IMG/VR virus record: IMGVR_UViG_3300045988_076504
Location: 32,001-96,000 of that record
Reading direction: 5' to 3' (one strand)
Length of the DNA stretch: 64,000 nt
Source: a virus
A program made the position numbers and the translations under genes. Under the pieces are notes generated by a model. It saw only the letters and a program-made list of their open reading frames with translations, made no database searches and was not told the DNA's origin. This document shows, in pieces, positions 1 to 46,215 of the stretch (its first letter is position 1; each line of letters starts with the position of its first letter).

Positions 1-114
1 ACAATATCCGGACAAGATCAACCAATAAAACAACTGTCCAGATCTGATTACAAATACTGTTATAGATCGTATTAGAAATTAGATCAGACATCATTTAAAT
101 TCACAATATCATGA
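1..114 (+). CDS. 3' end of an upstream late gene (partial at window edge)
   Basis: Frame 1 is open from nt 1, with one in-frame TAG at 73. TGA at 112-114 overlaps the next ATG (ATGA at 111-114). Confidence 0.35.
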
Positions 115-332
115 AATACTTAGAAGACGATATAAAATTCTTTTCGAGAGTTGTCTCAGGTTCACAAGACGGAGTAATTGCAAGCGCGGAACAGATAAAG
201 GATTACGATTGGAAAGGCGGAGAATTTTAGAATAATATAAATAGCTAGCTGTATTAGGAGATTGCAAAATTAAAAGAACTTGGTTTTGATATGACCCCTA
301 TAACAGAACAAGAAATATTAGAAGGATTATGA
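111..332 (+). CDS. Small hypothetical late protein (73 aa if TAG is sense)
   Basis: ATG at 111. In-frame TAGs at 228, 246 and 255. TGA at 330-332 overlaps the next ATG at 329 (ATGA). N-terminus MKYLEDDIK weakly resembles the fibre N-termini downstream. Confidence 0.45.
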
Positions 333-1426
333 AATTTTTAGATTTAAACGGTTTAAATACCCTTAAAAGTTATATAAAGAATACCTACGCTAAAAAGCCA
401 ACAATTATAACGCTGTCACAAATCGATACTTGTGGATATGAAAGTGCTTGGGATCTTGCTCAAGCTGCTAAAAATTCAGAAACAGGTTTAGTGTTCTATG
501 TTAGCGATATGTATTCTACACTTTATGTATTTGGTGAAAATCCTATACATGGCTGTGTACAAGTACTAGTTGGCAATTGTGTGATGGACACAAGCGATTC
601 CTCTATCAGTGTAGCACACAAAGATGGAATTTCTGCAACATATGTCAGAACATATCTTCACAAACCTGCCGCAATATATAATAAAGATGCAGGTTTTGAT
701 AGTACAACACAAGAATGGTCAGCGTGGATCATTAGAGAAACAAACGTTGCTACGAAAACCGGAACTGTCGCTAATAATATTAACGCAATTAAACAATCTC
801 TTGGTGATTTGTTATCGGTCGGTGTTGGAACAAATGTTGACAAAAATAAGCTTACACTCGGCTCGATGTATACAGGAGGCCTTTTAAAAGCACCCGGTAC
901 ATTAATCGATAAAGAAATTCCAGAAGCAAGTCAGACATGTAACGGTCTGATGTCAGTTGCTGATAAAATCAAACTTGACGGTTTGAGTGATGGTGGTAGC
1001 AGCACTGTAACAGATCCTACAAGCGTTGCAAAGATTGTAAGGTTTGACAGTGTTGTTACAGGAGATGTTACTATCGCAGCAGGATCTATAACAAGCGATA
1101 ATTGTGTTTTAGTATATCTTAAAGATAAGAACATATTTGCAATAAAAGATTAGGATAACGATACATATTATAATAACGGAGGTATTATCTTAAACGACAA
1201 TCCTGGAGTATGGGTATCGTCAGATAATTTCTCAGGACTTATTCCAAATTTTGAAGCAGGGTATAAAGCGATTCCGAATGCTATTTATGTCGACAAAGAT
1301 TATAAAATGTATGTTGGCGGTGTTATAAATAATTTGAAAGGTGGTGGTAAGTTCTGCCAGGCACTTAACGTAATAAACGTAATGAACATCCCAATAGATG
1401 AAATAAATACAACAGAAACTGAATAA
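329..1426 (+). CDS. Tail-fibre-like protein, paralog 1
   Basis: Track ORF 329-1153 continues in frame through TAG at 1151 to TAA at 1424. N-terminus is MKFLDLNGLNTLKSYIKN, and an internal NGLMSVADKIKLDGL motif is shared with the 2291 fibre. Confidence 0.7.
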
Positions 1427-1439
1427 TTAAAGATTAAAT

Positions 1440-2276
1440 ATGGCAAAATATTTAGATAGTGCTGGTCTTAGCACACTTGTGGGACAAATAAAAGAAAAAT
1501 ATTATCCAAAGACCAGCGGAAATAGTGATAGAAGTGATATTAATGCAATACTTAACGGGGATAAACCATTAGTTGCTCCACAACTTGTTACAAACGGATG
1601 GACTGTCACTAAGGTTGGCGGAAGTGCAGATACTACAGCTTATTCTGGAACTACCATTACTGTACCAACAGGATCATCAGTACAATATACAGGTACTTGG
1701 AAATGGACAACAACTGTAGGATATAAAGACCCTGAAACTGTCAGTGGTGCGTGGGGTTCTACTAAACCAGCATCCGGTACTGCAAGTAGTGTGTGTGCAG
1801 TACAAAGTAAAACTTCAACCACAGTAACTGATGCAACTATAGCACAAGTAACATTGACTGCTGCAAAAAAAGGATTGATGTTAAGCGGTCAGAAAGTAGT
1901 AAAAGCAAGTGGTAATGATAACACAAGTGCTTCTGCGATAGTTAAGTTTAGAGAGTGTGTTTATTGTGGAGCTGTTACATCTGCAACGCCTGATGGCAGT
2001 ACAATTGCAGCATTGGCAAATCCATTGTTGTTGGGTTCAAGACAAGCAACTATCACAGCAAATACAGATTCAAGCCACTACTATTGTTATGCATATCCAA
2101 CAAGTTTCGGCGAGCTTATTTCAATCATAGCAGATGGCGCAGATCCTATTAAAGATAACTTCAGAGCTGTGCAAACAGTAAATGTGAAAAACAAAGCAGG
2201 ACTTACAAAAGACTATTATGTATATGTAAGTGTTAATAAGGGTGCGTTTTCAAACAACTCACTCGCATTTAGATAA
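1440..2276 (+). CDS. Tail-fibre-like protein, paralog 2
   Basis: Intact ORF ending in TAA. N-terminus MAKYLDSAGLSTLVGQIKEKY matches the shared fibre anchor motif. Confidence 0.75.
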   Translation: MAKYLDSAGLSTLVGQIKEKYYPKTSGNSDRSDINAILNGDKPLVAPQLVTNGWTVTKVGGSADTTAYSGTTITVPTGSSVQYTGTWKWTTTVGYKDPETVSGAWGSTKPASGTASSVCAVQSKTSTTVTDATIAQVTLTAAKKGLMLSGQKVVKASGNDNTSASAIVKFRECVYCGAVTSATPDGSTIAALANPLLLGSRQATITANTDSSHYYCYAYPTSFGELISIIADGADPIKDNFRAVQTVNVKNKAGLTKDYYVYVSVNKGAFSNNSLAFR

Positions 2277-2290
2277 TTGGAGGATTAAAT

Positions 2291-4339
2291 ATGGCAAAAT
2301 TAGGACAAATTAAATCCGGAACAATGCGAGTTGGTAATACCACCGCATCCGGTTATGGTATTGTATATGCAGATGAGATTATAGGTCACAGAAGAGTAAA
2401 CACGTATGCTGACTTAGCAAATATTCCAGATTGGTCTTTGTATAATAAAGCAGGAGGTGAAACAACGTCTGCGGCTATAGGACAGTTATGGTATGTTACT
2501 ACTGGAGACACTTCTGGTCATTCTGCCGGTTTGTATCAGCTTACAGCTTGGTCAAACAATATAAAAACTTGGACGTTCTTTAAAAATGGAGCAAATGCAT
2601 CCAATACAACCTATACATTTGCAAATGGATCGAACGGTACGTTCACTGTAACGCCATCTGGAGGTTCTGCTCAAACGGTATCTATTGGTAAACCATCTAC
2701 TGCTGGAACAGCGGATCATGCAAAAACCGCAGATTCTGCTACAAAGGCTAATAGCGCTACATCAGCAACAAATGCTGGTCATGCTGCTAGCGCTGATAGT
2801 GCTACTAGTGCTACAAAAGCTACAAATGATGCAAACGGTAACAATATTGCAGGTACATATTTGACAAAAAATACAGCTTCTACTACATACGCAACAAAAA
2901 GCGAAATTTCAGCTCTTACATCTGCTTTGGTATATAGAGGTACTGTTGATGCTAAATACGCACTCCCTACAAAAAATGTAAAAATTGGAGATGTATATGT
3001 AGTTGCTGCAACTGGTACGTTTGCCGGTCAGACATGTGAACCTGGAGATATGATTATAGCTCAAACTGCAAGCAATGCTGAAGGTACACCAGCACCTACA
3101 TGGACTGTAGTGCAGACTAACATCAACGGTGCTGTAACGACTACTGAAAATCTTACTGCAAGCAGGTTGGTTGTTGGTAATAGTAATAAAAGTATAAGAG
3201 TTGCAACTGGTTCAGGTCTTGTTAAATTGACAGAAGGTGTTGTTAGTTACGATAACAATACATATTTAACAACAAGTAGTGCATCTAATACTTATGCTAC
3301 AAAAACTGCTCTTGATGGTAAAGTTGATAAGGTATCTGGTAAAGGATTAAGTACAAATGATTTTACTACTGCCGATAAAACTAAACTCGATGATCTTGGA
3401 TTGTCTGGGAATTCTTTTAATGATACATCTACTAATACTAAAGGTTTAACACTCAACTTAGTTGGTACCGACAGCAGTTACAATATACCAATTGTTAAAC
3501 CAAGCACTGATGCTTCGACTTACGGTCTTATGAGTGGTACTGACAAGAAGAAACTTGACAACATCGCAGAAGGTGCTAATAAGTATAGTCTTCCAACTGC
3601 CGCTAACGGTACACTTGGTGGTATCGCACTTGGATATGCAGAAACAGGTAGAAATTATGCTGTAAAATTAGACAGTAATAAAGCTTATGTTCATGTACCT
3701 TGGACAGATACTAATACTACTTATCCTTTAGCTTCTACATCCGCTAATGGTTTGATGTCTAGTACAGACAAAAACAAATTAAATGCTATACAAACTCCAG
3801 CAACTATAACAACATCATAGTTAGATTTGTGTGGGTATACCAATGCTGAATCTCTAGTTAACGCTGTAGCTAACCAAAAAGACGGGCTTTCTTATTTCGT
3901 AACCGATCAGAACGCAATTGTAACATTGCAAACAGACAACGGAAAGCATGCTATAATCCAAACGATAAGAACAGCTACTGAATTAAATGATTTGTGGGAA
4001 TTTGCCACAGGCACAACGTCGTCTCATACAGATGGAGTTCTTTTTACATACTAGAGATTCTATCCAATAGGTGGAACTTACTCTACTGATACCCGCAATA
4101 AGTGGACAAAGTGGGCTATAATAGACGTAGATACAATGTACACTACAAACAGGTCAAATATGAATAGTGTTTACAAATAGCTGGGTAAACAACTACTTAG
4201 TAATTTGAGCGTGGATACGAATGGAAAAATCACATTCAGTTCTACTTATTCCGGAACAAGTACAGCAGGAATCAAATCACAATCTAAAGATATATTAACA
4301 CCTATACTAAAATCGGAAATTACTACATTATTTAATTGA
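2291..4339 (+). CDS. Tail fibre with Ser/Ala/Thr-rich repeat stalk
   Basis: ORFs 2291-3820 and 3827-4054 plus downstream sequence share frame 2. They are joined by TAGs at 3818, 4052 and 4178, and TGA is at 4337. The stalk has SATxA-type repeats, and there are three GL(S/M)xxDxxKLDxx repeats. Confidence 0.75.
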
Positions 4340-4345
4340 TAAAAT

Positions 4346-4993
4346 ATGGCACAATATTTAGATTTAAACGGATTGCGTACGGTTGTAGACAATATAAAAA
4401 ACATTAAATCCCCTGTTTGTTTACCTACTTACGATAGGCGTTCCTCCTTATCATCCACAGCAACTGTGAAAAATGAAACTGCCTCCTCATATACACTTAT
4501 TATGTATGATACGAGGAGCTTGAGGTTTTTAGCATTGTCGAATGGAGCATTTTACACCAGGTGGGATTCTAATTCGAAACATTTGAGTTACGATTGTTAT
4601 GGAACACCATTGGACACTGGTGTACAACCTAAATTTGGATATTTATATGCAAATGTATTTGATAATACATTATAGTTAGGTGGAACAAATGGACAACTTA
4701 AAAATGTGGCAAATTATACAGCCCCAACAACATGGACTACTGTAACAACGTCTCCTATAAGTGGTGGGGATACAATTACAAAAATGGAAAAAAGCGATAC
4801 TGGAAATGGTACATATTTGTGGAGAATAACTGTAAAAAATCCAAATGCGGACGCTTGTGACTTTCTCGTATAGGATGCTGCCGGCAATAATTTCATACAG
4901 TATGGTATATATTTAGAAGGTAAGCAGTCTGGTACGTTTACAATAGAATTACCAAAAACAACTCCAAATGACCGTTTTTACGTCACAACATAA
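4346..4993 (+). CDS. Tail-fibre-like protein, paralog 3
   Basis: N-terminus MAQYLDLNGLRTVVDNIKNI. In-frame TAGs at 4673 and 4871. TAA at 4991. Confidence 0.65.
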
Positions 4994-5050
4994 TATATTT
5001 TAACATATTTTATCAAAAAATTGTACATTGATGCAACCATAAACGCATAA

Positions 5051-5140
5051 ATTTCCGTTATGGAAATATCAGCGGTAGCACTTAGCTACCAGATTTATAG
5101 GTGTGCGAACACCTGTAAATCCCTATAACTTGCAAGTTAT
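5051..5140 (+). other. Cluster of four consecutive stem-loops in a 285-nt intergenic gap
   Basis: ATTTCC-GTTAT-GGAAAT (5051-5067). GGTAGC-ACTTA-GCTACC (5074-5090). AGGTGT-GCGA-ACACCT (5099-5114, GNRA loop, extendable to about 9 bp). 16-nt palindrome ATAACTTGCAAGTTAT (5125-5140). Confidence 0.5.
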
Positions 5141-5276
5141 TTTATGAAGGTTCATAGCCATTTTTTAATTAATCCTTTTATTTCTTTTAACTACGGAAGA
5201 TAAAATAACTGAGAAGGTTTATTGTTACGATCATCCGAGCGCATACAATAACCACGACGCTCTTGCTATAGCAGCT

Positions 5277-6026
5277 ATGGCAGGACGCAATAATGAAGAT
5301 CCGTTGGCAATGGCATCTATGATGAATAACAACTAGTGGATGAACAATCCTTTTATCTATTTGGTATTCCTCATGATGTTCGGTAATGGAGGTTTCTGGG
5401 GTAACCGTAATGGTCTCCAAGGAGCTGAAATTCAAGGACAGCTTGATTCTCTGCGTAATCAGATGGCAGATAACCAGAATAGCAACTTAATTATGGGAGC
5501 TATTCAAGGTAATAACTGTGATCTGAAAGCTCTTGCTTCAAATCTTAACTGTGATTTCAACCAGTTACAAAACTCTGTTTGTGCGGTACGTTCCGCAATT
5601 GAACAGGTTGGTGGAAAGATCGGTTATAGCGCAGAACGAGTAATCAATGCAGCTAACTTAGGTGATATGAATATAATTCAGCAACTTAAGGACTGCTGCT
5701 GCCAGACCCAACAGAACATTATCAAGATGGGTTATGAGCAGTAGCTCGCAACATGTAATCAGACTAACACTTTGCAGAATGCAATCCAGTATGTGGCAAC
5801 AGGCGTTGAACGAGGATTCGCTGCATCAAGTTTCCAGAACGCACAAGATAAATGTGATATAATCCGTTCTAGCCAGGATAATACTCAACGTATCATAGAT
5901 ACATTGAATAATCACTGGCAGTGTGATTTACAATAGAGGTATAATGATGCAAGACTAGAGCTCAGTCAGCAGAAACAGAATGCTACGTTAATCGCAGCTC
6001 TGAAACCTGCTGCAGCTGCTGCATAA
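5277..6026 (+). CDS. Hypothetical Gln/Asn/Cys-rich protein with hydrophobic N-terminal segment
   Basis: 5277 is the first in-frame ATG after a TAA at 5166. TAGs at 5334, 5742 and 5934. TAA at 6024. Has a FIYLVFLMMFGNGGFWG hydrophobic stretch and an Ala-rich C-terminus. Confidence 0.6.
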
Positions 6027-6038
6027 AATGGTTAATAG

Positions 6039-6080
6039 AAGGGAGAGGGACAATATCCCTTTCCCTTTTTTGTTTTATTT
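6039..6080 (+). terminator. Rho-independent terminator
   Basis: About 10-bp stem AGGGAGAGGG / CCCTTTCCCT (one G-U pair) with loop ACAATAT, followed by TTTTTTGTTTTATTT. It lies immediately after the TAA at 6024. Confidence 0.75.
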
Positions 6081-6093
6081 AAATTTACAAACT

Positions 6094-6579
6094 ATGTTGT
6101 TTAAAGATTTGAATCCAAATTATCCGATATTTATCTTCAATAAAACAGATATTACTGTACAGGAAGGTAAAGTTATAAACAAAGGTCTTCCGCATTTTGA
6201 TATGTTGCATAACACTACTTCTGCGATGGTTACAGATATAACTATCAAAGCTGGAGATGTTACAAAAACATATACATTTAAAGACGATACTGAAATAGGG
6301 TATGCTGAAAACCTTGTAATATCTCCAAATAGAGATGCTATATTACGTGAGGTAGAATCTATCAAAGATCAATCTGAACAAGTTCTTAACCAAATTGATC
6401 TACATAAAGCAACAGTAGAAAAATGTAACAAAGTATTGTCCGAGTTTAATCCGGTGTTTAAAGAGAAGAAAGAAACAGAACAACGTTTCTCAAAACTTGA
6501 ATCTTCTGTTGAAGATATTAAAACAATGATTTCAAATCTTTCAAACACTATAAACAATAATAACAATGGACAAGTCTAA
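6094..6579 (+). CDS. Hypothetical protein
   Basis: Start moved to ATG 6094 (MLFKDLNPNY), because the track start at 6028 lies inside the terminator hairpin. Ends in TAA. No TAG. Confidence 0.7.
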   Translation: MLFKDLNPNYPIFIFNKTDITVQEGKVINKGLPHFDMLHNTTSAMVTDITIKAGDVTKTYTFKDDTEIGYAENLVISPNRDAILREVESIKDQSEQVLNQIDLHKATVEKCNKVLSEFNPVFKEKKETEQRFSKLESSVEDIKTMISNLSNTINNNNNGQV

Positions 6580-7063
6580 AATGAAAATGCACATAGACAG
6601 AATATCTTCTTTAATGGAAGAGCATAGTGATTCTGAAGTAAAGTGCGCAATAGTAAAAACGATCATGTCTTATCTATCAAAATGTGATGATAATACAATA
6701 AATGAGTTGTTAGATTGTACTGAAGGTTTATGTAATTATAATAACTTCTTAACGCAAAAGGAAGCATATGAAATACTAAACAAGTTTAAAAACTCGAATG
6801 GTAGTTCTGGTGCCCCTTTAAACATGTCAATACTTGAAACGCTTAAAGATGAAAACAAGTGCATAGACGATGCTCCAAATTATAATAAATGGGCATTATA
6901 TGTCACAATGTGCAAGTTTGCATCGGATCAAGGAGAGGTTATTTCTAAACTTGTGAACAATGATCATAATGCTTATATTAGTGCTTGTTATGATATGTCT
7001 GTTGCTCAGCTTAAAGATGCTGACAGACCGAGATGGGTAAGACAATACTTTAATTTATTTTAA
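6566..7063 (+). CDS. Hypothetical protein
   Basis: Intact 165-aa ORF overlapping the preceding stop by 14 nt. Ends in TAA. Confidence 0.7.
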   Translation: MDKSKMKMHIDRISSLMEEHSDSEVKCAIVKTIMSYLSKCDDNTINELLDCTEGLCNYNNFLTQKEAYEILNKFKNSNGSSGAPLNMSILETLKDENKCIDDAPNYNKWALYVTMCKFASDQGEVISKLVNNDHNAYISACYDMSVAQLKDADRPRWVRQYFNLF

Positions 7064-7065
7064 AT

Positions 7066-9945
7066 ATGAAAATTCAAAAGAAGCAAGAAATTGAATTCTT
7101 TGGTACCAAAACAGGCAATGCTAATTCTATCGCTTTAGGCTACGCAACTGAGACTAAGAACTTCGGGGAAGTTGCTGTAGGTGTAATGAATAAGTCTACC
7201 GCTGCTAAAGATCCAAATAGCCCAAAAGGCGTTTGCGCTGATTCTGATGCCACTTTGTTCTCTGTTGGATGTGGTGGAAGCGGGGAACGAAAGAACGCGT
7301 TAGAAGTAAAAGGAGACGGCTCTGTGTTGATTTCTGGAGAGAATGGTGATATAAATGTTGCCGATAAAATTAAGCAGGCTCTCGATACAGATGCAAGCAT
7401 TGAACTTGTTAAATCTACAGAGAGTGATCTCCAGTATACACTTATGGTTAACAACGAGTCACGTGGAAGCATAAATATTCCAAAAGATCAATTCTTGAAG
7501 AATGTAACGTATGATACTGAAGCTAAACAGCTTGTATTTACGTTTGTAACACTTGATGAGGAAGAGCATGTAGAGAAAATATCTATCAACGATCTGAAAG
7601 ATGTCTATACAGCTGGTGATGGTATTAACATAGATAATAATGTAATATCTGCTGATTTTAGTTCTGTCATGACAGCTATATCTGATGAAAAGACTTAGAG
7701 GGAAACGACTGATAACGAAATAAAGTCTACATTAGATACTAAAGCTGATTTAAATAATGCCATAACTTATCGTTCAGATAATATAAGTGGATTATTTAAC
7801 AACGATGGAAACAAACAAGAATCTTATGGTTATCGTTGTGTGGATATAGGTTTTAATAATGTAAGAAACTTTAGCAATACTTGCATTTCTATAGGTAGCG
7901 ATAACAACCAACTTGAAAGAGGCGATAACACTATTTGTATGGGTACATCAAACACTTTTAACTATGGTAGTGTTTGTGTTGGAGACAATATAAAATCCAG
8001 ATATACTAATTCTATATATATTGGAAGTGGAATAACCACAAAACAAGACACCTTTGGTTCACTTAACACTATAATTGGCAGTTATGACGGTTTAAATGTT
8101 GCTTGTACACCGATTGGATTTATTAGCGTTGGGTTCGGACCTCGTGCCGACAAAGACGGAAAAGTACTTTATCAAATCGGAGCTCATCATGCTACAGATT
8201 ATAACAAAGATAATTATAATCTAGAAGAAACCCTTACTTCTGATTACGATCATAAAAAGTATATTTATGGTATTGGTGGTTATGATGGTACAGACCCTGT
8301 AACAACTAAAGCTAAATCTCTTCAAGAAGTCTTAGATACTAAAGCTAACAAAACAGATGTAAATAGTCGTTTAGATGATTTACAAAACCGTTGTTTTAAG
8401 TTTGGAATTGATGGTAGCATAGCAGCTCCATATAAAGGAATACCTACAGATGATTCAAAACTAAAGATTAAAACATTAAAGGATAATCAAGAATATACTT
8501 ATGTTAACGTAAGTGGTATTTTAGAGCCTGGAGACCCAGCTTATAATTGTATATATGATAAAACTCTCGATAAAACCATTAATATTATAACTAGTGATGA
8601 CTTTATTCCAACAAATAAAGAAGGTGATTTTTTTAAAACATCTGAATCTCTTGATTTAACTCACACATTTTATCTTGATAATGAAAAGACAGGTATTGTT
8701 GATAATCTTACTCAACTTACCATTGAAGAAACTAATGTTTTTGTAAATTTTCCGTATGTGGAAATTAATGATAATCTTAATGACAGTGAAGTACCACAAT
8801 ACATATATGATGCAACTGATAATAAATGGATAGAAGTTGTTGATACATTTTATACCAGTTCGTATGTTGGTTTTAATACAGAAGAACCATTAGATTTGAC
8901 ACATGAATTTTATAATAATGTTATAGGAAATTGGACAAGCGTTGGAGAACACTCTACAGCATTAGGTTGTTATGCGTATTCAGGTGGAAACGAATCTATA
9001 GCATTAGGATGTTTTACAACAGTAAACGGCAATGGTTCTACATGTTTAGGATATAATTCACAAGTAGATGGAGACGAATCTATTGTATTAGGATATAATT
9101 CATCATCAAAGGCGAGTTATAATGTAGTATTAGGACGAAAAATAAAATCTTACGCAGGTGCGTCTAATAGTGTAGCAATAGGAACTGGTCTAACTGTAAA
9201 TGGAAATCATGCTATCGGGATAGGAGATGGAATAGATTTAAATAATGATAGGAGTATAGCAATAGGAGATGTTAGCTATGTATCTGTTGGAGCTATAGCT
9301 ATTGGTAATAATAATAATGCAACAGGAGACACGTCTATAGCTATTGGAGATACCACTCGCTCAAAGGGTAACTATTCTACATGTATTGGTTATCGTGCAA
9401 ATGCAACCGGTCTTAATTCTTCAGCTTTAGGTGCTTATTCAAGTACTGGTGGAGATTATGCTATAGCTCTTGGTAAAAACATGTCAAATACTAAATCAAT
9501 ATTTGGTGTTGGTTTTAATGGTGTGAATGGTATCGATATGGATAGAGATAATTATGGTCTTTATCTTAAAGGTTTTGGTGGTTATGATGGAACTAATCTT
9601 GTAGTACCGAGTGGAAATACTGAAACTCTCAATCCTGGTATTAAAAGTGTTCAGCAAATAATTAATGAAAAAGCTGATGCTTCTGCTTATTATACTAAGA
9701 CTGAAATAGATGGTAAGGGTTATCTTACAGCTCACCAATCATTGGATGATTATGCTAAGAAAACTGAAATACCTAATGTTAGTACCAAAGCCGATCTCGT
9801 TGATGGTAAATTAAAAGCAGAACAATTACCTAAGCTCGATAATATTGCGGAAGCCACCACAACAGAAGACATGATAACCAAATTCAACGATTTACTTGCC
9901 GATTTGAAAGCTAAAGGTTATATGACTGCCGACATAACAACATAA
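7066..9945 (+). CDS. Large tail fibre/spike with YadA-head-like (Hep_Hag-type) repeats
   Basis: ORFs 7066-7698 and 7840-9945 are both frame 1, joined through a single TAG at 7696 (checked codon by codon). Has repeated SxAxG / SIAIGD / NATGxxSxAxG units like trimeric autotransporter head repeats. TAA at 9943. Confidence 0.75.
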
Positions 9946-9952
9946 TCATTTT

Positions 9953-10384
9953 ATGACATTTAATATTAATAATACCACTATCAAAGGGATATGTAATTTC
10001 GAAGGATTAGTACTTACCGCATATAAATGTCCAGCTGGAGTTTGGACAATTGGATATGGACATACTAAAGGAGTTAAAAAAGGACAAAAGATAACAAGAG
10101 AACAAGCTGTAGAATATTTAAAATAGGACGTTCAGCCTATTGTAAGCTACTTAAATAAGCTTGGCGTGTGCAAGACACAAGGTTAGTTCGGAGCTTTAGT
10201 TAGTTTTATATTCAATTTAGGCGTTGGTAATTTTTAGAAATCGACACTATTTAAATATATTAAACAAGGTAAATCTGACGACATGATATGTAATTAGTTC
10301 ATGCGTTGGACAAAAGGTGGCGGTAAAGTACTACCAGGATTAGTAAAACGAAGATAGTGGGAGTGTAACATGTGGAGAAGCTAA
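9953..10384 (+). CDS. Endolysin, GH24 (T4/P22-type) lysozyme
   Basis: Invisible in the standard-code track. With TAG as sense it reads MTFNINNTTIKGICNFEGLVLTAYKCPAGVWTIGYGHT...Q-FGALVSFIFNLG...GLVKRR-Q-WE. Shows the E-8aa-C/D-5aa-T catalytic spacing. Five in-frame TAGs, including 10124 and 10184. TAA at 10382. Confidence 0.9.
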
Positions 10385-10385
10385 T

Positions 10386-10901
10386 ATGAATAACATACTT
10401 ACTTAGATTGGATATATGTTCAATTCTATATGTGGACAAAGCCAATGGGCTAAGTTATGGCTTGGAGCGAGTGCGTTGCTCACAGCATACGTTGTCCCTA
10501 TAGTAGGATTATTAGTCGCTTGTTTTGCATTTACTACCGTAGATATGATCTATGGTATAAAAGTAGCAAAAAAGCTAGGACAAAAAATCACTAGTAAGAA
10601 AAATTGGCGTGGTACACTCTAGAAAATAAAGGATGAATTCACCATTATATTATTAGCACATTTGTTGGAATACGTTGTGCTAAACGATCAGATACCATTT
10701 GTACTAACAGGCGGCACTACAGTTATAATATGTTTAACTGAATTATGGTCTATTCTTGAGAATTTACATACATTGGATCCAAACGGTCCGTGGAGATCTT
10801 TAGGTATGTTTTTAAAGAAAAAAGGTGGTGAATATACAGGGATTGAAATTAATAATAAAAACGATGATACAAGCGATAATAACGTGGTTATTAAACCATA
10901 A
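10386..10901 (+). CDS. Holin (phage_holin_4-like, three hydrophobic segments)
   Basis: ORFs 10416-10622 and 10662-10901 share frame 0, joined by TAG at 10620. The ATG at 10386 is followed by TAG at 10404. Motifs: VDMIYGIKVAKKLGQKITSKK ... ELWSILENL. The start could instead be 10416. Confidence 0.7.
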
Positions 10902-11508: not shown

Positions 11509-11515
11509 CAATAAT

Positions 11516-12641: not shown

Positions 12642-12660
12642 ATCTGTTATTGCAAAAATA

Positions 12661-22442: not shown

Positions 22443-22444
22443 TT

Positions 22445-35236: not shown

Positions 35237-36162
35237 AAACATCAATGTCGAAATAAAAGTATGTGAATTGCTGGGAAATCCCTATGGGACAATCAGCAGC
35301 CTAGCCCTACGAAAGGGAAGGTTCAACGACTAATAGTATATTATATAATAATTCCTCATAAATTGAAGAAAGAAATGAAAAAGATTTTAAAAAATAGATT
35401 AAATGAAAATGGTAGAAATCTCCTAATTGCCGCTGCACTTGGAGATGGATGTATAAGTAAACAAGGATAGATGTTAATAAATCATTCTTGGAAGCAATAC
35501 GAATATTGTAAATGGAAACGAGAACTTTTAAAAAAGAACGGAATAAAAGTAGGTGTTTTACAACGTTTTGAAGGTTCAAATGGATATTTAAAACACACAA
35601 TACAATATAGATTTTGCATTGGTATTACACCATTTAACAAAGTTCTAAGACGTATTATGTACAATGAACACGGTAAACATTATTCTCGTAAATTATTAAA
35701 CAGACTAAGTCAACAAGGTCTTGCCTTGTGGTTTATGGACGACGGTGCAATATTACGTAGAAAATATAAAGGTAAATATTGCGGGTTCTATTTAAGAATA
35801 TCTACATATTGTACATCACAAGAAGCTGATGATATTATTAAATATTTTGTTGAAGAATGGGATATACACCCTACCAAAGTACATGAAAATAAAATAAAAC
35901 ATTATGATGCTTATACTATCAATTTTGGAGCAAAAGAAGGTAAGAAGTTAATAGATATAATTAAGCCTTATATGTGTCCAAGTATGATGTATAAAGTGTT
36001 ATATGATATCGAAGAATTAAAATCTTATTATGATATACAAGATGTGAGGGAAGTTCTCACAGAAAGTACATTAGAGTCTGATAGACTACTAATGGAAGCG
36101 CATACTACATCGAAAGATGTAAAGATATAGTCTAATCTTCGTAGCAATACGAAGTATAAATG
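35237..36162 (+). mobile_element. Group I intron (926 nt) carrying a LAGLIDADG homing endonuclease ORF
   Basis: P1: exon TTCGAU (35231-35236) pairs with GUCGAA (35247-35252), with a U-G pair at the splice site. P10: AUCAAU (35241-35246) pairs with exon 2 AUUGAU (36163-36168). Terminal G at 36162. GNRA hairpins CCC-UACGAAA-GGG and CUUCGUA-GCAA-UACGAAG. Splicing restores the frame and gives ...GSDFD|IDKLYM... Confidence 0.85.
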
Positions 36163-36163
36163 A
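35375..36163 (+). CDS. LAGLIDADG homing endonuclease (double-motif)
   Basis: ATG at 35375. Motif 1 is LLIAAALGDGCI and motif 2 is LALWFMDDGAIL. The in-frame TAG at 35468 separates motif 1 from the rest, so it must be read as sense. The TAG at 36128 is also read through, and TGA at 36161-36163 straddles the 3' splice site. Confidence 0.85.
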
Positions 36164-39100
36164 TTGATAAGTTATATATGTCTACACTTCATTATGATGT
36201 AGAGTCTGTTGACAACGATTATATCGATAAAAAAGGATAGATACACAGAAGAAAGACATATAACGCTAAATCTTACAATTTATCAGATGTTACAAACAAT
36301 AACACAAACGAGTTGTTGCGCATATATTTGTCTTTGTTAAAAGATACCGGATAGTACAAAGATGGAAAGATTGTAGGTGGAAGATACGGACACGTATTAA
36401 GAAGATCTATTGATAGTGATACGGATTTGATAAAAGAGGTTCTTTCAGAAATAGAAAGTAGTATAGAACAAAAAGCATACGAACCGTATCAATTTGAAAG
36501 TATGTCGTTTTAGGTTAATACCAGATCTGCATTTGCAACCGGTAAAACTGGTATCGGACCATTTGCGCTGAATAACAACAGTCAAATTCTTACACAAATA
36601 TATGGCATCAAGTTTATAAACGATGGTGGTATATTAAGTTCTTTCGGAGCTTTATCATTAGATAGGACTTCGGACGTTGATGGAAAATCTATATTATCTT
36701 GGATTTCTGGTATGATTAATGCTCACGTAGACGTTGCGAAAGACCCGTATATATTGAGATTAAATATCAATAAAGACACATATAATCTTGCAGCATTGTT
36801 ATTACGTTTAGGATTTGGAAGACACGCTCTTTATTTCTTAAACAATCCTGTAATGAGAGAGCTTTCTGCTATACGAAATGAGCAGGACGGATAGATTGTA
36901 AACGACCCTGGAAAAACTCCAACACAGCGTAAAGAAAAAGCTGAGAATGAATACATTAAAGATGTATTCGGTAGTAATAGTGTGGCATTCTCATACGTAA
37001 ATGCAAAACCAGATGAAAAAGATGATATTGCTAAACGAGCTTTTAAAACGATTGTACAGATATTTGGAAATCCTTTTAAAGAACATAAAGATACTACAAT
37101 ATTACAAAGTATTTGTTAGAGTTTGTATGGAGAAAATGGTGAGAAAAAGGTAACAGATCTGTCAAAGGACAAGATATATAAGTTGGAAGATGGTACAAAA
37201 TTATCACCATTTGAAGTTCAACAATATGTATATATAGCATCTAAAGAATTTGAATCTTACGCTTAGGGTTTGTCAGACTTAGTACAATATACTAAAATCG
37301 ACACAAAGAAACAAGGTATAAATTATACAGAACAGTAGAAGTATTTGCAAGGTTATGAGAAACTTTACAATAGCGGAATGTTTAATTCAAATCTGAAACA
37401 ATTGTTGAACGATTCTTATATACATACAAAAACAATATACGGTACTTCATTCTTACCTAGAGTATTAGGCGGACAAATGATCCATATGTCATATCAATTC
37501 CAAGCTGAAACAGAATCGATTTTGGATAAAATTAACAACCATTCTAAAAATTCTAGAGAAGCTGTACAAAAAGCAATGCTGTGTTATATTAAACAAAAAG
37601 CTTTCAATAAGGCGTTTAAAGATTATGTTGATAAATATAACGAGCAAAATAATACAGACTACACAATAGAGAAATATTGGGAACATTTAATAAAAGGAAA
37701 CGATACTTTATCTAATCGTATTTAGAAGCTACAGAGATGGATATAGGCTGATAATAAAGGACTGCTAAAAGAATTCGGTTAGAATGGTGTTATAACAAAT
37801 GCGATACTTAAGAACTTATATCCGGTACCGTACATATCTCAATATGGGCAAGATCACTTTGATATTATCACTTTAGGAAATAATAGCGAAGATGAAAAAT
37901 CTATAAGTAATGATTATATATATTCATGGGAACAGATGTTAAATTATACAAATAGTGAACGTCTGGGATTACAGAAATATATTAGAGATTTAGCTAACGA
38001 TCTTGCTATATACGCATTTATGACATCTGCAGACAGTAAAGGATTTACAAAATTCTTTAAATACGCGCCACTTCAATGGAGAAAAGAGTTTGGATATTGT
38101 GATAATATTGCGGAAGCAAACAAAGAATATCAAGAAGGTGGTCTCACATTAACTACAGACAATGTTAGCGAATACGGTATCGATTTCGATGATTTTATAT
38201 AGAATTTCTATTACGACAACAATATATTACCGGAAACGTCTTTAACTGATCGTAATGGTCGCCAACAAATGGTTACTTCAGCATTTACATATAACACTCT
38301 TGACGAATACGGTAATCCTACATTACGTACAGAACCTAAAAATATAATAGGTCTTAACATGCGTGGTAATAAATATGCACAAAGTATTAGTAAAAACAAA
38401 GACGGATACTTCCCAGAATATATAAAAACACGTAGAAACGGAACACGATATAACGATAACGATCAATTCCTATTGTATAAACTCGTAGATGTCGGAATTG
38501 TAAAGAATGGAAATGTCGAATTAGAATATCCAATATATCAAATTATAAACGCCAAAGGTTTACAAATGCAAATTGGTTCACAAACATATCAATTCTATTC
38601 TTGTGGAATGAATGATAATTACGAGCGTTCTCAATTTACCACGAAAGATAAATCTGGAAATAGGGTAAAGCCAACCATGGAGCAAGTGCAAGAGTCTTAT
38701 AATAACCGCAAAGCTGCTTTATAGAAATACATCAATGAGAATAATTATTCTATACTTGATGCGGTTAAGAAAGCAGGACTCGTTAGTAAGAATGATATAT
38801 TTGGAGGACAGTTATCTAGTATACAAGAAGCGGCATATAGCGGTATAGGTTCAAATAAGAATACTGTGAATGTTAACTTCGGAGCAAGCGATAATCCACA
38901 TTTGTCTAATTTTGCAAAACGTCCTATTTCTGATATATTTGACGTAGTTGAAAGTTTTATTAATTCTCCAGAGTTTTATAAAATAAAATCTACGGTTAAA
39001 CATAAGGCAGACACTGTAGAAAATGCGTTCTAGGCGTTAAAAGTGTTGTATTCTGATTTGAATGATAATGATAAGGTGGTTAAATTTAATCATATTATAT

Positions 39101-39465
39101 CACTACCGTCTGCAAAACAAGCTAGAGCGGAAGGTAGATCGTTACCTATTAGTAGTACAAAACTTAAAATGTGGGACGATATAAGTACTGATGTATTACA
39201 GTCTTTGATGAGGGCTTCTTTTGAGCAGAATGAAGACGCAGCGCAAGCATTGGTTGATACTGGTGATAAAATAATAACACATGATAACGCAAAAGGTGAA
39301 TCTTTAGATGATAGATTTGCTCCAGCATTGACTCAGATACGCCAAGAGTTAATAGATGGAGGACATGCTCCAAACACTGTAAAACAACAATAGTCTTTGA
39401 AAGATTATCCCGCTAACGAGGCTCTTGATGAATTAGCAGATCAAATAGACGAACAATGTAAATAA
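36163..39465 (+). CDS. Giant virion protein, exon 2 (RNAP-like region continues; C-terminal NADAR domain)
   Basis: Starts IDKLYMSTLHYD. ORFs 36712, 37345, 37936, 38269 and 39043 are all in frame 1, joined by TAGs (about 14). A genuine TAA is at 39463-39465. Exons 1 and 2 together give about 5364 codons. Confidence 0.75.
38860..39393 (+). other. NADAR (YbiA/DUF1768-like) domain at the C-terminus of the giant protein
   Basis: PHLSNFAKRPI, VENAF-(TAG)-ALK and WDDISTDVLQSLMRASFEQNEDAAQALVDTGDKIITH parallel my recollection of E. coli YbiA: FSNFAAWPI, EHYFQAQK, WESVKEQVMRKALRAKFEQHAELRALLLATAPAKLVEH. Confidence 0.75.
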
Positions 39466-39474
39466 CAAATCATT

Positions 39475-42400
39475 ATGGTATGTTTAATTAAAAGTAAATA
39501 TAAAGAAGAATTAGATTTATACACATAGTTGCTAGGCTCTGAAAAACGAGCCTACGCGATTTTGTGTTGTAATAACGGATATACTCTAGACAAGACTAAA
39601 GATGGAAAACCATCTAAATTGTATAATGATTTGTTAGAGTATTATAAAGGAGATGTAACAAAAGCTGTGCAAAAGAAAGCATAGCTTTTTACATCTGAAT
39701 TTACAAAAGATTACGGTCAATGGTACCAAGACGGATATGAAATATCTGACGAATATAAAGATGTATTTGATGAGAATGGAGAACCGCTGCTTAACGGCAC
39801 ACATTTTGGTACAGCAGATAATAAGATATTACTCGGCGGGCAGAAAAAATTTGCATCAATAGAAGAGGAGGAACAATATATATTAGAGCACGCTACACGT
39901 GATGAAAATGGAAAACTATTGGCACCTAATGGCAAACCTTCAAATCTTACAGAAAAACAATACGCTCAAGTGAGAACTAAAGCCTTTAAAGAGTGGTTTG
40001 GTGATTGGGAGAATGATCCAGAGAGTGCTTCTAAGGTAATAGATGAAAATGGAGAACCTTTGGTTGTTTATCATAATACACCATTTAAATTCAATGGTAT
40101 ATTTGATATGGATCATGTTTCAAGAATTATGCCGTAGATGTCAGAGCCATTTGGTCATGTAAGGACTAAAGAAACCGCCAATACTATAAAAGGTTCACAA
40201 TACGCTCTTTTCCTCAATTTAAAAAATCCATTAGAAACTCCTGATTTTGTCCACGAATCTGTAAGTTCCATGTTATCCGAGCTGTATAAACAAGGTATCA
40301 TTTCTAGAGAAAAATATTCTTCTCTCAGAGGAATATCTAATTCAGAATTAAGAAATTTGATGCTTTCTTTGGGATATGATGGTACAAAATATGAAAATAA
40401 AGCAGAAAGAGGCGGGATTTCTTATAGTTTTATAACACCTAATCAAATTAAATCAGCAACAGACAACGTAGGTACATTCTCTAAAACTAACGATAATATA
40501 TACAAAAGACGTGGTGAAAAGAGAGACAACCATATGTACAACAGGGAGCGTGCTGTAAAATATATTAAGGATCAAGGATACACAATAGACAATCTGGTTC
40601 ATGACACATATGAGACAAGATTTGAAGTCACATTAAAAGCTAAAACTAAAGAAGACGTTTGGAGATCGTATATAAAGAATATGGATCCTGCGTTAAAGGT
40701 TAAATATGCAGGAGTACGTATTGGTAAGAAAGACCCTAGACTTGAAGTTTAGATTAAAACCAAAGAAAGTGAGTCACTAACTAATCTAAATCAGTTTCTT
40801 GATAAAAAATCTTTAAATACTGCGCAAGATCTTTTACAATATATTATAAAACAAACTAAAGACGAGAATAATCAGAATTTTTCTTTCATCCGTGCTGTAT
40901 TAAAAGATATTAATAAAACTGTTCCCGAATTATTTAGTAATATCAATGTCAAAGTAATTGCCGATAACAATGGTAATTATTCTGCGAAATATGACAATAA
41001 TACAAAAACTATAATTATAAATAGTGCAAGATCGTTCGGCAACGAAAATAATTTCAACGATGAGTTAATACAGACATTGACTCATGAAATGATACATGCT
41101 GTTACGGTGGAAGCGTTATAGAGATCTAAACAATTGCGTGAAAGAGCTGAAAGATTATTATCAGAGCTCAAAAAACAATTTAACAATGATCCAGATATTC
41201 AAGGTATACAGGATGTGTACGAAATGGTTGCCGAATTAAGTAACGATGAATTTATCAAAAAATTGTAGTAGATACAATATTCTACTGATGAAACATGGTT
41301 TGATAAGATAAGAAGATTTATATCTACTGTTATTCGTCACTATCTACGTAAAATAGGGCTACAATATAAAAATACCGCATATTCAGAACTCGCTAATATT
41401 TTTGTACAATCTGCGTACGGTAAGAAAACCGGTTTATAGATGTCTGAAAACATAGATGAAAAGACGGTTTTTAATAGAAACTCTAAAAAACGCATACAAG
41501 AAGCTAAAAAGAAAGTAAAAGCTAAACTGAAGGAAGGTATACATATTGTCGGAACACGTGATTCTACATAGAAGCTTATAGACAAGTTGTCGCAGGATAT
41601 AATATTAGGAACACGTAGTAAAAATAAAGCATATTCTTCTAAAAGAAACAGTAGTGTATCTTACGGAAATGAAAGGTAGATTGCCAGAAACCAAGAAGCT
41701 GTAAATTTTGTAGACGAGCAAGCTAAAACTATAAACGAAGCTATAGCTGAGCGTGATGCAGAAAAACAATTAACCGAACAAGCAAAACTTATACTCGATT
41801 TTATAGATCACGCTGATTCTGATATAAATGAAGTACTACAAATGCTTAAAAACGCATAGGATAACGACTACGATTTAATATATTATAATGTCGACCAATT
41901 TGGAAATAGATTGTATCAAGATCCGTCTGGCAATTCTATAACAGCTCAAACTGCAGGAAATAATACTATAGCCAAGTAGTTTTCATTCGATGATATACAA
42001 TATATGACAACCGATATTTTAGGTTATTATCAAAAACTTCTAAGCGACATTGACAATATGTTATTGTAGGTACCAGTTGGCAAAAATGCAATTGTTGATG
42101 AAATTCGCGATCTTATGCAATCATTAAGACTACACGATCAACTTCGAGCTGCATCTAATATGAAACGACAAGCGCAAGAGAAAATGCTTGATTTTTATAT
42201 AGATCAACGTATAAATCAACAAGAATCATCAGAACTTACTGATGAAATGAAACAGAGGTTGTCTATCAACATGAAAAAATGGGTAAAATCCCAATATGAT
42301 TTTGGAGATGTTGGAAGTTTCGCTGTATGGACGCAACTCATATCTGATTCAAAAAGTCCTATTGTGAGAATGATGGCAGATGAAATCTATACAATGAATC

Positions 42401-45400
42401 AAGAAATAGATAGTGCTATTGTTCCGAGGGGTGAAGAATTAGAAAAAGCTTTAAAAGAAGCCGAAAACGAAATGTCTATTTTAGGAAATCATAATCCAGT
42501 CAACGTAATGACGATGTTGATGCAAAAGGATAGACGTGGTTATTACAACGGAGATTTTGTACAACCTATTAACAGAAGACAATATTTTCAAGATCTTGAA
42601 GATTTTAAAACTGCGTTGTTGTTTGGAAAGGGAGGGTTGCAAGACTAGTTAAAGAAAAAGATCAGCAATGACTTTGAATTAGAACTAGACGAATATGGAG
42701 AACCTGCAATACCAACAGGTGTTGAGTTTGATGATATATACAAAGACTACAAACGTAAGATGGAAACGTTTATATGTGATCATGCTAACAGACGTTTTAC
42801 GAAAGAGTATTATTTGTCTCGCATAGACACATTGTCTCCAACTACTATTCGTGTATTAGATCAATTTAGTAGGAAAATTAGTAATTTGAAAAATTCTGCA
42901 ACGGTTGATGGTAAATTCAGACCAGACCTGCTAAGTTCTAAACAGCGTGCAGAATTAGCACAGCTTTAGAAAGATAGACAGGAATTAAGTAACCCGTATG
43001 ATCAGTTTGGAGAATTAAAAGATCCGGATTTTATTGAAGGAATCGTAGCTAAGGAATTAAATGACTGGCAGGACGTAATAAATGGAGAGATAAAATATAA
43101 AAGCGACGTAGAAGCGTTCAACGAATGTCTTAATAATATACAATCTCAAGCAGAAAAAGATCAATTTAAACGCATGTTTGCATATGTTGGTTTAAATCCT
43201 AACATGTATAACTTTTTAGCAAAATATGAGTATATAGGTCAAAATGATGCTGTTAGACAATTACTTGACGAAATAAGCGAACTACGTAAGAAACTTCGTA
43301 AACTAATCGGAATAAACAAAGATCGTTCGTCATATCTTGGTTATAATTGGGAATAGTTATTCGATATTCGTACAGGAGAGATAAAAAACGAAAAACTTTT
43401 AGCAGAAATACGTAACGTTGATGATTAGTTACAACTTAAATCACAAATGTTGCGTAATATAAGGAAGAGCGACAAAGAAGACGAAGATACATTTGGCGAC
43501 AAATGGCAACTCATTCCAGGCGTTTCGTATGGCAGATTATTTACACAAATGTATTATGGTAGTGTAAATATAGATCCTACTTAGAGTAGTACTCAGACTG
43601 TATATTCTCCAAATAACGACACTGTTTATGAAATCGTACGTAATAATTATATAAATTATCTGACTAGTAATGGAATGTCAATACAAGACGCTACAGATAA
43701 AGCATCTTAGATGTTAACTATAGGTCATAATACACCGTTGTCCATTTTCATGGTGTAGATGCCTAGCAGCAAAACATTTAAATACGAAGATGAAAATGGT
43801 GTCGAGCATAGTGAACCGTCTTTTGTATGGATTCCAAATCAATTATTTAGTAAGGTGGATACTGAAAATTCATCTTCTAGGTTTATAAATAAGCACTTTG
43901 ACGAATCATCCGGAGAAAGTGTACAGCCGAAGGAAGAAGACTATAGAGACGAGCGGTATTACGAAATGATAAAGCATCCAAAACTTAACGATTTATACGA
44001 CAAGCTCGTAAAAGGTATGTAGGATGTTTACAGTATATTGCCGTATTCTGGTAAATACGATATGAGACTTCCACAAATGGGAGCTAACACAGCTGCGATG
44101 TTGACAAGAAATTTATCAAACGATTATGGTTTTCATTTTGCATCAAACCTACGGTCTGTATTTAATAGATTTGCCAACGCTACTGAGATAGATACTGATT
44201 ATTATATTCCAGAATACAATAGACGACCAGATGGCAGTACTATTAAAAACATACCAATTAGGTATATAAACAGAATAGATGATTCTAGAAATATATCTTC
44301 AGACTTAGCTGGTGGTGTCATAGCGATGTTGAAAATGGCTACTAACTATAACGTTAAAAGTAAACATATATCTAAATTTGAATCTATATTAAATTCTATT
44401 AAGGAAAACGATGTTGGAGAATCTAATCAATCTCGTGTAGTAGAAGGAATGCTCGACAGATTAATGTATGAAAATCAAAACAATACAAAGAAAAACAAGG
44501 ATGTTGAAGATATAAGTAAGATTAGACGTATATTCATAGGTGGCCCTAAAACTCTGTTAAAACGTTTAGGAATCGCAAGAGGTGCTTCAACACTTATAAA
44601 CCTTGCAGGTAGAGGTGTATCTATGATAGTTTCATTTTTAGATCCTTTGCTTAGTACGTTTATAGAATCACTTACCGGTAGATATTATGGTGCGCGCGAT
44701 CTTATGTGTGGTGTATTCGATACATGTAGAGAGTTCCCATTAATGCTTGCTAGTATTTCTAGAAGAAAATCTTTTAGTAAAACTATGGCTATTATAGACG
44801 CTCTCGGTATGGAAAAACCTATAGAGCATAGATTTTCTAATATGCATCATTCTTCTATAAGACGACTTCTTTCTGACAATTTAATGATGAAAGGATTTGA
44901 AGTTGGAGATTATACGATAAAAGCTTTTAACGTAAATAGTATATTTAGAACTTATAGAATGTACACCGATAGCAACGGGTAGGTTTCGTTCTTAAATAAA
45001 TACGACTATATACAACATTGTATACAAGACGGGATGTCTAAAAAAGATGCGGTGAAAGCTTACAAAAGTGCAAGAAATGCTCGTTCTTATTTATATGTTA
45101 AAAATGGAAGCTTAGCTTTCAAGAGTGGTATGACAGAAGATCAATTTAGAAAACTTGGAAATGCTGCGAAAAAGATTTCACAGAATATCACACTTATGGC
45201 TAATACTGAAGATAAAACGTGGATGCAAACTAATCCGTGGACAGCTTTCATTACAATGTTGCGTACATTTATGCTTGTAGGATTTGGAGAAAGGTTTAAG
45301 AATTTTAATGATTTTATTGTTGGTACAGACGAACATTACGATCCTACAACCGGAAATGTTATTACTGATATATCTGATAGAAATCTTACGAGTCGTGAAA

Positions 45401-46215
45401 TAAAACAATAGAAAAAATAGCATTATTATAGAGGAGGTTATAATTTTATGACAGGTCACATTGAAAATGGTATATATATGAGTAACCTCAAAGCTCTTAA
45501 AAGATTAGTGTGGGATGCTTAGAAACACAGAATTAGATTCAATCGCTTTTTCTTGAAATATAGTAATATGACACAAGAAGAACTTAAAAAGTCTGACATA
45601 TCTATGGCGGAATTATATTCACTTAAGCGTATATTATTAGAATTGTCTGTCGTTGCAGGTTGTGTTACAATGTCTGTTTTAGTAAATAGACATTGTCAAG
45701 GGTTGGATCCAGATGACGATGATAATTATTGGTGGTTCTTGTTAAATTCAATTTTCATGAGAATTGGTATTGAACGTGTTACAATGTATAATCCTTAGAC
45801 TGTTAGTGATTTGATTACGTCTATAACAACATTAACTAGTGCAACTTCTAAATTATTTGGTGTATTTGATGTACTTGGTGATTTCTTAGGTCTTACAGAT
45901 CACGATCCTAATGAAATCATAACATCGAATAGTGCATATAATGGCTATACACGGTCTTACAGAGCTACAATGAACGCTCTTTCAATTTTCGGTACAGCTG
46001 GTTGGTTTGCAACAATGCCTAAATCATTAGGAGGTGGTGGAGCTAGAGCTCTTGACAAGTCTGCAGGATGGTATGCTAAAACTGCTCCTTGGAGGTTGTT
46101 ATATAAGAATCAAGATGCTGGATATACACCAGTAGAAAAAGATTATAAAGATCCGTCTCTTGCGACAGATGATATTTCAAATTCTGATTTAGCTACAGAC
46201 GACGTTATAGAATAA
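39475..46215 (+). CDS. Polyvalent-type giant virion protein (about 2246 codons): ART-like domain, HExxH zincin motif, C-terminal hydrophobic segments
   Basis: ATG at 39475 follows the TAA at 39463. Ten track ORFs (39919 to 45811) are all in frame 1, and the 40753-42115 gap was verified codon by codon to contain TAG only. About 26 TAGs. TAA at 46213. Motifs: FKEWFGDWE..DENGEPLVVYHNT...GYDGTKY...PNQIKSATDNVGTF, and LTHEMIHAV at 41083-41097. Confidence 0.7.

Follow-up and report, generated by a model that had tools for sequence, protein, structure and literature searches.

A crAss-like phage with two genetic codes: in-frame TAG codons, probably read as glutamine, in the late module of a gut virus contig

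The stretch of DNA analysed here, referred to as the window (64,000 bp, 34.6% G+C), covers positions 32,001 to 96,000 of the virus record IMGVR_UViG_3300045988_076504 and represents about two thirds of a genome of ~100 kb. The genome has two codes. A late module on the + strand (1-46215) uses TAG as a sense codon, and an early/replication module on the - strand (46271-64000) can be read in its host's standard code. By exact-protein match, the source contig was identified as ENA ERZ5855851 scaffold_42 (100,119 bp), from a Peruvian gut metagenome (run SRR1761707); the scaffold and the window are identical over overlaps of 12,276 and 10,951 bases. On sequence comparison the phage is crAss-like (Crassvirales, Suoliviridae/Oafivirinae-like). 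Structural genes of the crAss type, matching Pfam CrAss_Ring_1 and CrAss_Ring_2, are present, and crAss_MUZ and Crass_capsid assignments are on record for the source contig. The best DNA and protein matches are to Oafivirinae genera, namely Bohxovirus, Buhlduvirus (cr273_1) and Cacepaovirus (cr131_1). The stabilisation protein has its nearest GenBank match at only ~30% amino acid (aa) identity in tblastn, and the lineage of the window is absent from GenBank. For comparison, 77 IMG/VR loci were collected around ring protein 1, and ~90 related phage loci were compared in all.

Late genes and their in-frame TAG codons

When TAG is taken as sense, the + strand from 329 to 46215 resolves into 21 abutting or slightly overlapping genes, including those for proteins of 4273, 2246, 1734 and 1101 aa. 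The open reading frames (ORFs) are as follows.

329..9945 (+): eight tail-fibre-like/unknown late genes, TAG-poor with 10 TAG in total (TAG-sense ORFs and codon counts), at 329-1426, 1440-2276, 2291-4339, 4346-4993, 5277-6026, 6028-6579, 6566-7063 and 7066-9945
9953..10384 (+): glycoside hydrolase family 24 (GH24) endolysin, 143 aa, 5 TAG; matches PDB lysozymes down to E=4e-25, with Pfam Phage_lysozyme on record
10386..10901 (+): holin, 171 aa, 2 TAG; Pfam Phage_holin_4_1 E=1.3e-11, PHROG holin
10864..11508 (+): spanin-like protein, 214 aa, 8 TAG; N-terminal transmembrane segment, then coiled coil
11516-12199 (+): crAss tail ring protein 2; Pfam CrAss_Ring_2 E=3e-50
12189-12641 (+): small conserved protein
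12616-13476 (+): crAss tail ring protein 1; Pfam CrAss_Ring_1 E=1e-99
13466..18670 (+): tail stabilisation (muzzle) protein, 1734 aa, 16 TAG; tblastn to crAss stabilisation proteins, crAss_MUZ on record
18661..22442 (+): two late genes, 686 aa with 5 TAG and 574 aa with 9 TAG
22445..35266 (+): giant virion protein, first part, 4273 aa, 41 TAG; aligns to residues 2532-4465 of cr273_1 gp35
35375..36163 (+): LAGLIDADG homing endonuclease, 262 aa, 2 TAG; Pfam LAGLIDADG_2 E=2e-18
36160..39465 (+): giant gene, second part, 1101 aa, 14 TAG; aligns to residues 4549-4732 of cr273_1 gp35, with a C-terminal NADAR-like domain
39475..46215 (+): giant late protein, 2246 aa, 26 TAG; last gene of the late module

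The late module carries 140 in-frame TAG codons and not a single TAA or TGA among 15,163 codons. Off frame, TAA and TGA occur at 47.6 and 28.0 per 1000, so that the probability of finding none in frame is ~1e-518 and chance is excluded. TAG itself is present at 9.2 per 1000 codons in frame compared with 21.7 off frame. The genes end in TAA (15) or TGA (6). These counts bear out the initial annotation, which had proposed that TAG is sense across the 46-kb + strand module, with well over 100 in-frame TAG codons and every merged gene ending in TAA or TGA. The runs of same-frame fragments on which that proposal was built were recovered in exactly the numbers given. With a minimum of 60 aa, frame 2 has 20 ORFs between 22838 and 35218 and seven between 13466 and 18409, every one of them TAG-ended, and frame 1 has 15 between 36712 and 46215, of which 14 end in TAG and the last in TAA. 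The individual codons singled out (10184, 39031, 11053/11056, 26411/26414 and 41266/41269) are all TAG and lie in the frames named. Genes called with TAG as sense cover 98% of the late module, a comparison that had been proposed as a check, whereas code-11 ORFs of at least 100 aa cover 55%.

Programmed or leaky read-through was considered and rejected: there are 140 sites, up to 41 per ORF, with three tandem pairs, and not single or few sites with a special context. Since one ORF alone carries 41 TAG codons, leaky read-through is unworkable, and full reassignment is the sole workable reading. The tandem TAG pairs had themselves been put forward as an argument for full reassignment. All three pairs exist, but the pair at 11053-11058 is held within a conserved RNA hairpin (described in a later section) and is therefore not independent evidence.

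TAG is not used evenly. It makes up 19% of the Gln codons in the late module overall, 50% in the endolysin gene, 33% in the holin gene and 57% in the spanin-like gene. For the lysis cassette as a whole, 15 of 30 Gln codons are TAG (50%) against 125 of 701 (18%) elsewhere (Fisher p=1e-4). Four late genes, and the major capsid gene just upstream of the window, have no TAG. The excess in the lysis genes matches the published pattern; a TAG bias of lysis genes, together with a regulatory model, was described by Borges et al. (10.1101/2021.08.26.457843). The product of 10864-11508 matched no Pfam or PHROG family, and its putative spanin-like function is assigned from position and topology alone. 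The protein is kept at full length in 75 loci.

An insertion carrying the LAGLIDADG endonuclease gene (35267-36163) splits the giant virion gene into the parts encoding 4273 aa and 1101 aa. The gene is unsplit in relatives, as a 5794-aa ORF in cr273_1 and a 5604-aa ORF in a close relative. The endonuclease ORF shares an ATGA overlap with the beginning of the gene after it and therefore looks like a free-standing gene-splitting insertion; no Rfam group I intron match was found around it. In one relative locus (L079) the endonuclease is 96% identical and the flanking genes 77-79% identical, an excess of the kind that a mobile element would show. Further downstream, the genes for the 1101-aa and 2246-aa proteins are contiguous in the same frame with a single TAA between them (39463-39465, +). 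A TAA stands there in IMGVR_UViG_3300045988_082615 (hereafter 082615), the closest IMG/VR relative, and a TGA in Bohxovirus. Since cr273_1 is annotated with two separate genes, 39463-39465 is probably a true gene boundary.

The amino acid at TAG positions

To identify the residue, the late proteins were aligned to the 77 loci with TAG masked, and reliably aligned TAG positions were counted. The codons opposite the TAG sites of the window were TAG (506), CAA (224), AGA (96), CAG (92), AAT (80) and AAA (71). In the reverse direction, the stop codons of relatives lying within high-scoring segment pairs were TAG in 2968 cases, TAA in 4 and TGA in 1, and the window residue opposite them was most often Q. 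Gln is the maximum-likelihood residue, more than 570 natural-log (ln) units above the runner-up Arg with a substitution table derived from the same alignments. Q is found opposite TAG in 31% of cases, compared with a self-conservation of 34% for ordinary Gln. Among strictly conserved Gln columns (n=25), most are free mixtures of TAG, CAA and CAG. The homologue tabulation that had been suggested for the TAG-to-Gln claim thus comes out in its favour.

Closer relatives gave the same picture. In those at 80-99% identity, 77 of 116 TAG differences are CAA (42) or CAG (35). When the giant genes are compared with 082615, 60 of 73 window TAG sites carry CAA (29), TAG (18) or CAG (13). At two of the endolysin's five TAG positions, aa 78 (nucleotide 10184) and aa 115, the solved GH24 lysozymes of the PDB invariably carry Q; the first of these is the site that the initial annotation had placed on a conserved glutamine. 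Its second example, TAG 39031 in the NADAR domain, is plausible. The closest relative has CAA there (aa 958), but the Pfam NADAR match (E=8.5e-7) scores 29.8 bits against a gathering threshold of 35.1, and the alignment to YbiA in the PDB is too weak and does not reach TAG 39031. Taken from these alignments, decoding of late-module TAG as Gln is supported.

The decoder and the extent of the reassignment

The best explanation of these findings is that of a dual-coded phage in which late TAG encodes Gln, the decoder most likely being a phage-encoded amber suppressor tRNA(CUA); we hold this to be very probable. Once the tRNA(CUA) at the head of the late operon is made, the TAG-bearing late proteins could be completed. 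The TAG-rich endolysin, holin and spanin-like protein would depend on it above all. As the late proteins would be completable only with the suppressor, assembly and lysis would be tied to the code switch. The timing of its expression in this phage, and the way in which release factor 1 would be outcompeted, are inferred.

Several findings weigh against this explanation. The survey of tRNAs and codes covered the window and 18 kb of flanks, that is, 82 of the 100 kb of the source contig. No tRNA(CUA) was detected in the window by ARAGORN (default and relaxed), Rfam or a hand-made pattern for the CUA anticodon arm, nor in the 8.5 kb upstream and 9.6 kb downstream. No release factor or Gln-tRNA synthetase was found in the window or the 18-kb flanks, and no other aminoacyl-tRNA synthetase in the window. 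At variable sites, TAG also stands opposite K, R, E and N; this is as for any Gln codon at such divergence.

A tRNA(CUA) is intact in ten related genomes: cr273_1, cr131_1, Dulem virus 42 and seven metagenomic relatives. In all ten it lies on the late strand, directly upstream of the dUTPase gene at the head of the late operon. The seven metagenomic contigs, whose dUTPase is 98-99% identical to that of 082615, have the tRNA ~25 nucleotides (nt) upstream of this gene, and TerL and portal genes after it. In an eleventh relative, 082615 itself, the tRNA(CUA) at the same site is split (locus L169, 2147-3176, -) by a ~990-nt insertion with an HNH endonuclease ORF, which interrupts the CUA anticodon precisely at the U35/A36 junction. 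Each half of the tRNA is intact and agrees with the unbroken copy in the seven close relatives. ARAGORN and Rfam both miss the split tRNA, and the insertion has no Rfam group I match. An HNH-bearing insertion in the anticodon offers a concrete explanation for suppressors that are 'missing' from recoded phages. From this fixed position upstream of dUTPase in relatives, the suppressor site of the window phage is predicted to lie outside the window, in the remaining ~18 kb of the source contig, and it is likely that the phage itself carries an amber suppressor tRNA there.

The genome could also manage with no dedicated suppressor, TAG being read by near-cognate Gln tRNAs (a phage tRNA-Gln(UUG) or those of the host) or by an odd tRNA-like gene with a short UUA-containing loop. 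The missing tRNA(CUA) in the 82 kb covered would fit this, as would the presence of the following genes.

49531-49602 (-): tRNA-like gene; Rfam 36.6 bits, missed by default ARAGORN; 5-bp anticodon stem and 6-nt loop UAUUAA
L086 1726-1798 and 2430-2499, ~7 kb past the window end in the source contig: tRNA-Gln(UUG) and a clear paralogue with its anticodon loop shortened to aCUUAu (aUUUAu in two close relatives)

A similar odd tRNA is also found in Bohxovirus, in which no tRNA(CUA) is present. We nevertheless consider this alternative improbable. All three complete TAG-only relatives, and the seven close metagenomic ones, have a normal tRNA(CUA). Near-cognate reading could not take the ribosome through 41 TAG codons. 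A UUA anticodon would read TAA as well, and TAA is the stop of 15 of the 21 late genes, with no TGA close by to serve as a back-up. The gene at 49531-49602 is an unlikely non-canonical suppressor on the same ground, and because the syntenic tRNA-like elements upstream of the primase gene in relatives, while keeping a covarying T arm, have unrelated and often shortened anticodon loops; in cr131_1 a normal tRNA-Leu takes its place. A non-canonical decoder is thus less likely than a canonical tRNA(CUA) at the dUTPase site.

Further RNA elements were noted in the same survey. A second T-arm-like element lies at 49505-49525 (-), just upstream of the primase gene. The two close relatives with the aUUUAu paralogue also have a tRNA with anticodon UUA after G33. 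A permuted transfer-messenger RNA (tmRNA) is found ~1 kb past window position 64000 (L086, 8422-8652), upstream of the sigma-factor operon, and has annotated counterparts in cr273_1, cr131_1 and Dulem virus 42. One close relative carries a RAGATH-1 hammerhead ribozyme (L087, 992-1060).

The reassignment is confined to the late module, as seen from the features of the early strand.

46271..64000 (-): early/replication module, 19 genes, standard code; no internal TAG in 4,537 codons
57234..57236 (-): TAG as true stop of the early gene 57237-57761; read-through adds 43 codons
60371..60373 (-): TAG as stop of the early gene 60374-60823
57054..57138 (-): tRNA-Leu(UAA), the only canonical tRNA in the window; not a suppressor

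Early products include a PDDEXK exonuclease, a primase, an AAA_24 ATPase, a DnaB-type helicase, a DNA polymerase and a sigma-70-family factor. The early genes end in TAA (13), TGA (4) or TAG (2). Since they have no internal TAG and two of them end in it, the genome is dual-coded. The alternative is a uniform code 15 throughout the genome, with early genes that merely happen to be without TAG; the recorded gene calls do treat TAG as sense everywhere, which extends two early ORFs to 219 and 183 aa. Against it stands the rate of internal TAG, zero in the early codons compared with 9.2 per 1000 in the late ones. In the adjoining 9.6 kb of the source contig, two further early ORFs have a TAG a few codons before the next stop, and all four early-strand TAG codons lie 5 to 43 codons ahead of the next stop. 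The TAG at 57234-57236 must be a real stop, because read-through would run into the tRNA-Leu gene. A uniform code is therefore hardly probable, and slightly less so than decoding without a dedicated suppressor.

The early module also contains a stretch of ~1.9 kb (58400-60270) in which, whichever stop is reassigned, neither strand has an ORF above 66 aa. It matched no Rfam family and has no strong repeats. In cr131_1, cr273_1 and close relatives an ORF-free gap of ~2 kb occupies the corresponding position, with patches of 68-85% DNA identity across genera, and this conservation suggests a possible non-coding function such as an RNA or an origin.

That late TAG encodes anything but Gln, for instance pyrrolysine, Lys, Glu, Tyr or Trp, is very unlikely. 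ARAGORN labels the tRNA(CUA) of relatives 'tRNA-Pyl', but purely from the anticodon, and the K, R, E and N opposite TAG are limited to variable sites. Strictly conserved sites mix only TAG, CAA and CAG, the lysozymes of the PDB have their invariant Q at two TAG sites, and Gln is ahead by the likelihood margin given above. Pfam scans of the 19 early proteins and of seven of the 21 late proteins gave no pyl-type enzymes. Peters et al. 2022 (PMC9523058) give proteomic proof of TAG as Q in related crAss-like phages. Damage, whether through decay of the phage or as an artefact of assembly or sequencing, has nothing in its favour beyond the fragmented look under code 11 and can be dismissed: of the three stop codons a single one is found in frame, ~90 independent assemblies have TAG or a synonymous codon at the TAG positions, and the window is identical to separately recorded ENA and Logan contigs.

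A hairpin built from TAG codons, and comparison with known systems

Within the spanin-like ORF, TAG codons form part of a conserved RNA structure.

11024..11062 (+): terminator-like RNA hairpin within the spanin-like ORF; 18 pairs (6 GC), 3-nt loop, tail GTAATGTTTT

The stem contains TAG 11032 and the tandem TAG 11053-11058 (aa 57, 64 and 65). It is the only terminator-like match in 9500-13500 and has the features of an intrinsic terminator, a G+C-containing stem-loop followed by a U-rich tract. The minimum free energy of the 81-nt hairpin context is -34.6 kcal/mol (z = -7.2), and RNAalifold on 54 distinct sequences gave a consensus stem of 11 bp. Covariation is seen at the closing pair, which is made of two synonymous third positions (A-U 38, G-C 13, G-U 2, unpaired 0), and two sequences have C-G for U-A at pair 13-35. 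In one relative TAG TAG is replaced by TGG TGG, with a compensating CAG opposite, so that the protein is altered and the helix kept. Codon choice does not vary in the downstream GTT TTA, while other Leu columns use five or six codons. At aa 57, 64 and 65, TAG is found in 70-72 of 74 relatives, compared with 0-73% TAG at other conserved Gln columns; the near-invariance is explained by constraint at the nucleotide level, namely the hairpin. In 91 loci, Bohxovirus, cr273_1 and cr131_1 among them, the arms are found once per genome; more than 119 IMG/VR contigs have them too.

We raise tentatively, as a doubtful proposition, that this hairpin is an attenuator that senses suppression and couples the code switch to late-gene expression. 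In such a scheme, ribosomes would stop, without suppressor, at the TAG codons in or just before the 5' arm, and the hairpin would form. Its formation would cut off transcription or translation of the remaining lysis gene and the downstream virion genes. When TAG is read as Gln, ribosomes would melt the hairpin and expression would continue. The hairpin resembles the trp and his leader attenuators in being terminator-like within a translated region, with formation that would depend on the passage of ribosomes over particular codons. It differs from them in that the critical codons would be TAG, stop or sense, inside a long protein-coding gene and not a leader peptide. If true, the attenuator would be a physical link between code switch and late expression, beyond TAG merely blocking translation. 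A hairpin of TAG codons that is invariant in more than 100 genomes is in any case a testable handle on the link between recoding and lysis timing.

The initial annotation had warned that a code-11 annotation of this contig would be badly wrong. With code 11, no fragment of the window's endolysin is longer than 57 aa, and the giant virion proteins are broken up into dozens of fragments. The warning applies to deposited genomes as well: Bohxovirus PV686213, annotated with Prokka (PMC12697116), and Dulem virus 42 are deposited as fields of short 'hypothetical protein' fragments, and in the standard-code records PV686213 and PP511876 the terminase, portal, capsid and stabilisation genes are each in several pieces. 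The public record of the source contig already has gene lengths with TAG as sense, so the recoding was handled by the annotating pipeline; judged by this record, current pipelines cope with it. For this contig the practical point stands, given the 55% coverage of the late module by code 11.

Bohxovirus sp. 'endotrachealis' (PV686213) appears to go further than the window phage. Nine verified late genes contain 110 TAA and 170 TAG but no TGA in 13,403 codons, and only with TAA and TAG both as sense do its ORFs attain the lengths expected of them, 5400, 2085 and 1805 aa. In relatives, Gln or TAG stands opposite its TAA codons at about the same frequency as opposite CAA. The early genes of this phage are mostly TAA-ended, and the loop of its odd tRNA is CG-UUA-G, of 6 nt. 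Recoding of TAA was not found mentioned in the literature searched, and the use of both codons for Gln would extend the known range of phage codes. In the ciliate nuclear code (table 6), TAA and TAG both encode Gln. The likeness concerns Bohxovirus PV686213 and not the window: TAA and TAG are in-frame Gln and TGA is the sole stop of late genes. In the window TAA is a normal stop, and the change in Bohxovirus, unlike that of ciliates, is confined to the late module.

That TAG is recoded to Gln in some crAss-like phages, as the initial annotation stated, agrees with the literature (PMC7886860; 10.1101/2021.08.26.457843; PMC9523058). The call was correct, but late-gene recoding of TAG to Gln in Suoliviridae is already established. 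The window is one more case of a known strategy and leaves the picture unchanged; the by-products of the analysis may matter more. Yutin et al. 2021 (PMC7886860) reported the dual-code architecture in crAss-like phages of the Delta group, and dual coding was described more widely by Borges et al. 2021/22 (10.1101/2021.08.26.457843). The window shares with the Delta-group phages (Suoliviridae) the order, the family-level clade, the change of TAG to Gln, the split into TAG-free early and TAG-rich late genes, the TAG excess in lysis genes and, in its relatives, a suppressor tRNA placed with the late genes. It differs in that its lineage is absent from GenBank and that a suppressor was not seen in 82 of 100 kb. 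Comparable genomes are those of cr273_1 (Buhlduvirus animalis), cr131_1 (Cacepaovirus simiae) and Dulem virus 42. In these the tRNA(CUA) is seen beside the dUTPase gene, and in cr273_1 the 4273-aa and 1101-aa proteins correspond to one ORF without the LAGLIDADG insertion. All three have a collinear late module with TAG-only recoding, and share with the window phage the hairpin motif, the giant genes, the sigma factor, the ORF-free region of ~2 kb and the permuted tmRNA.

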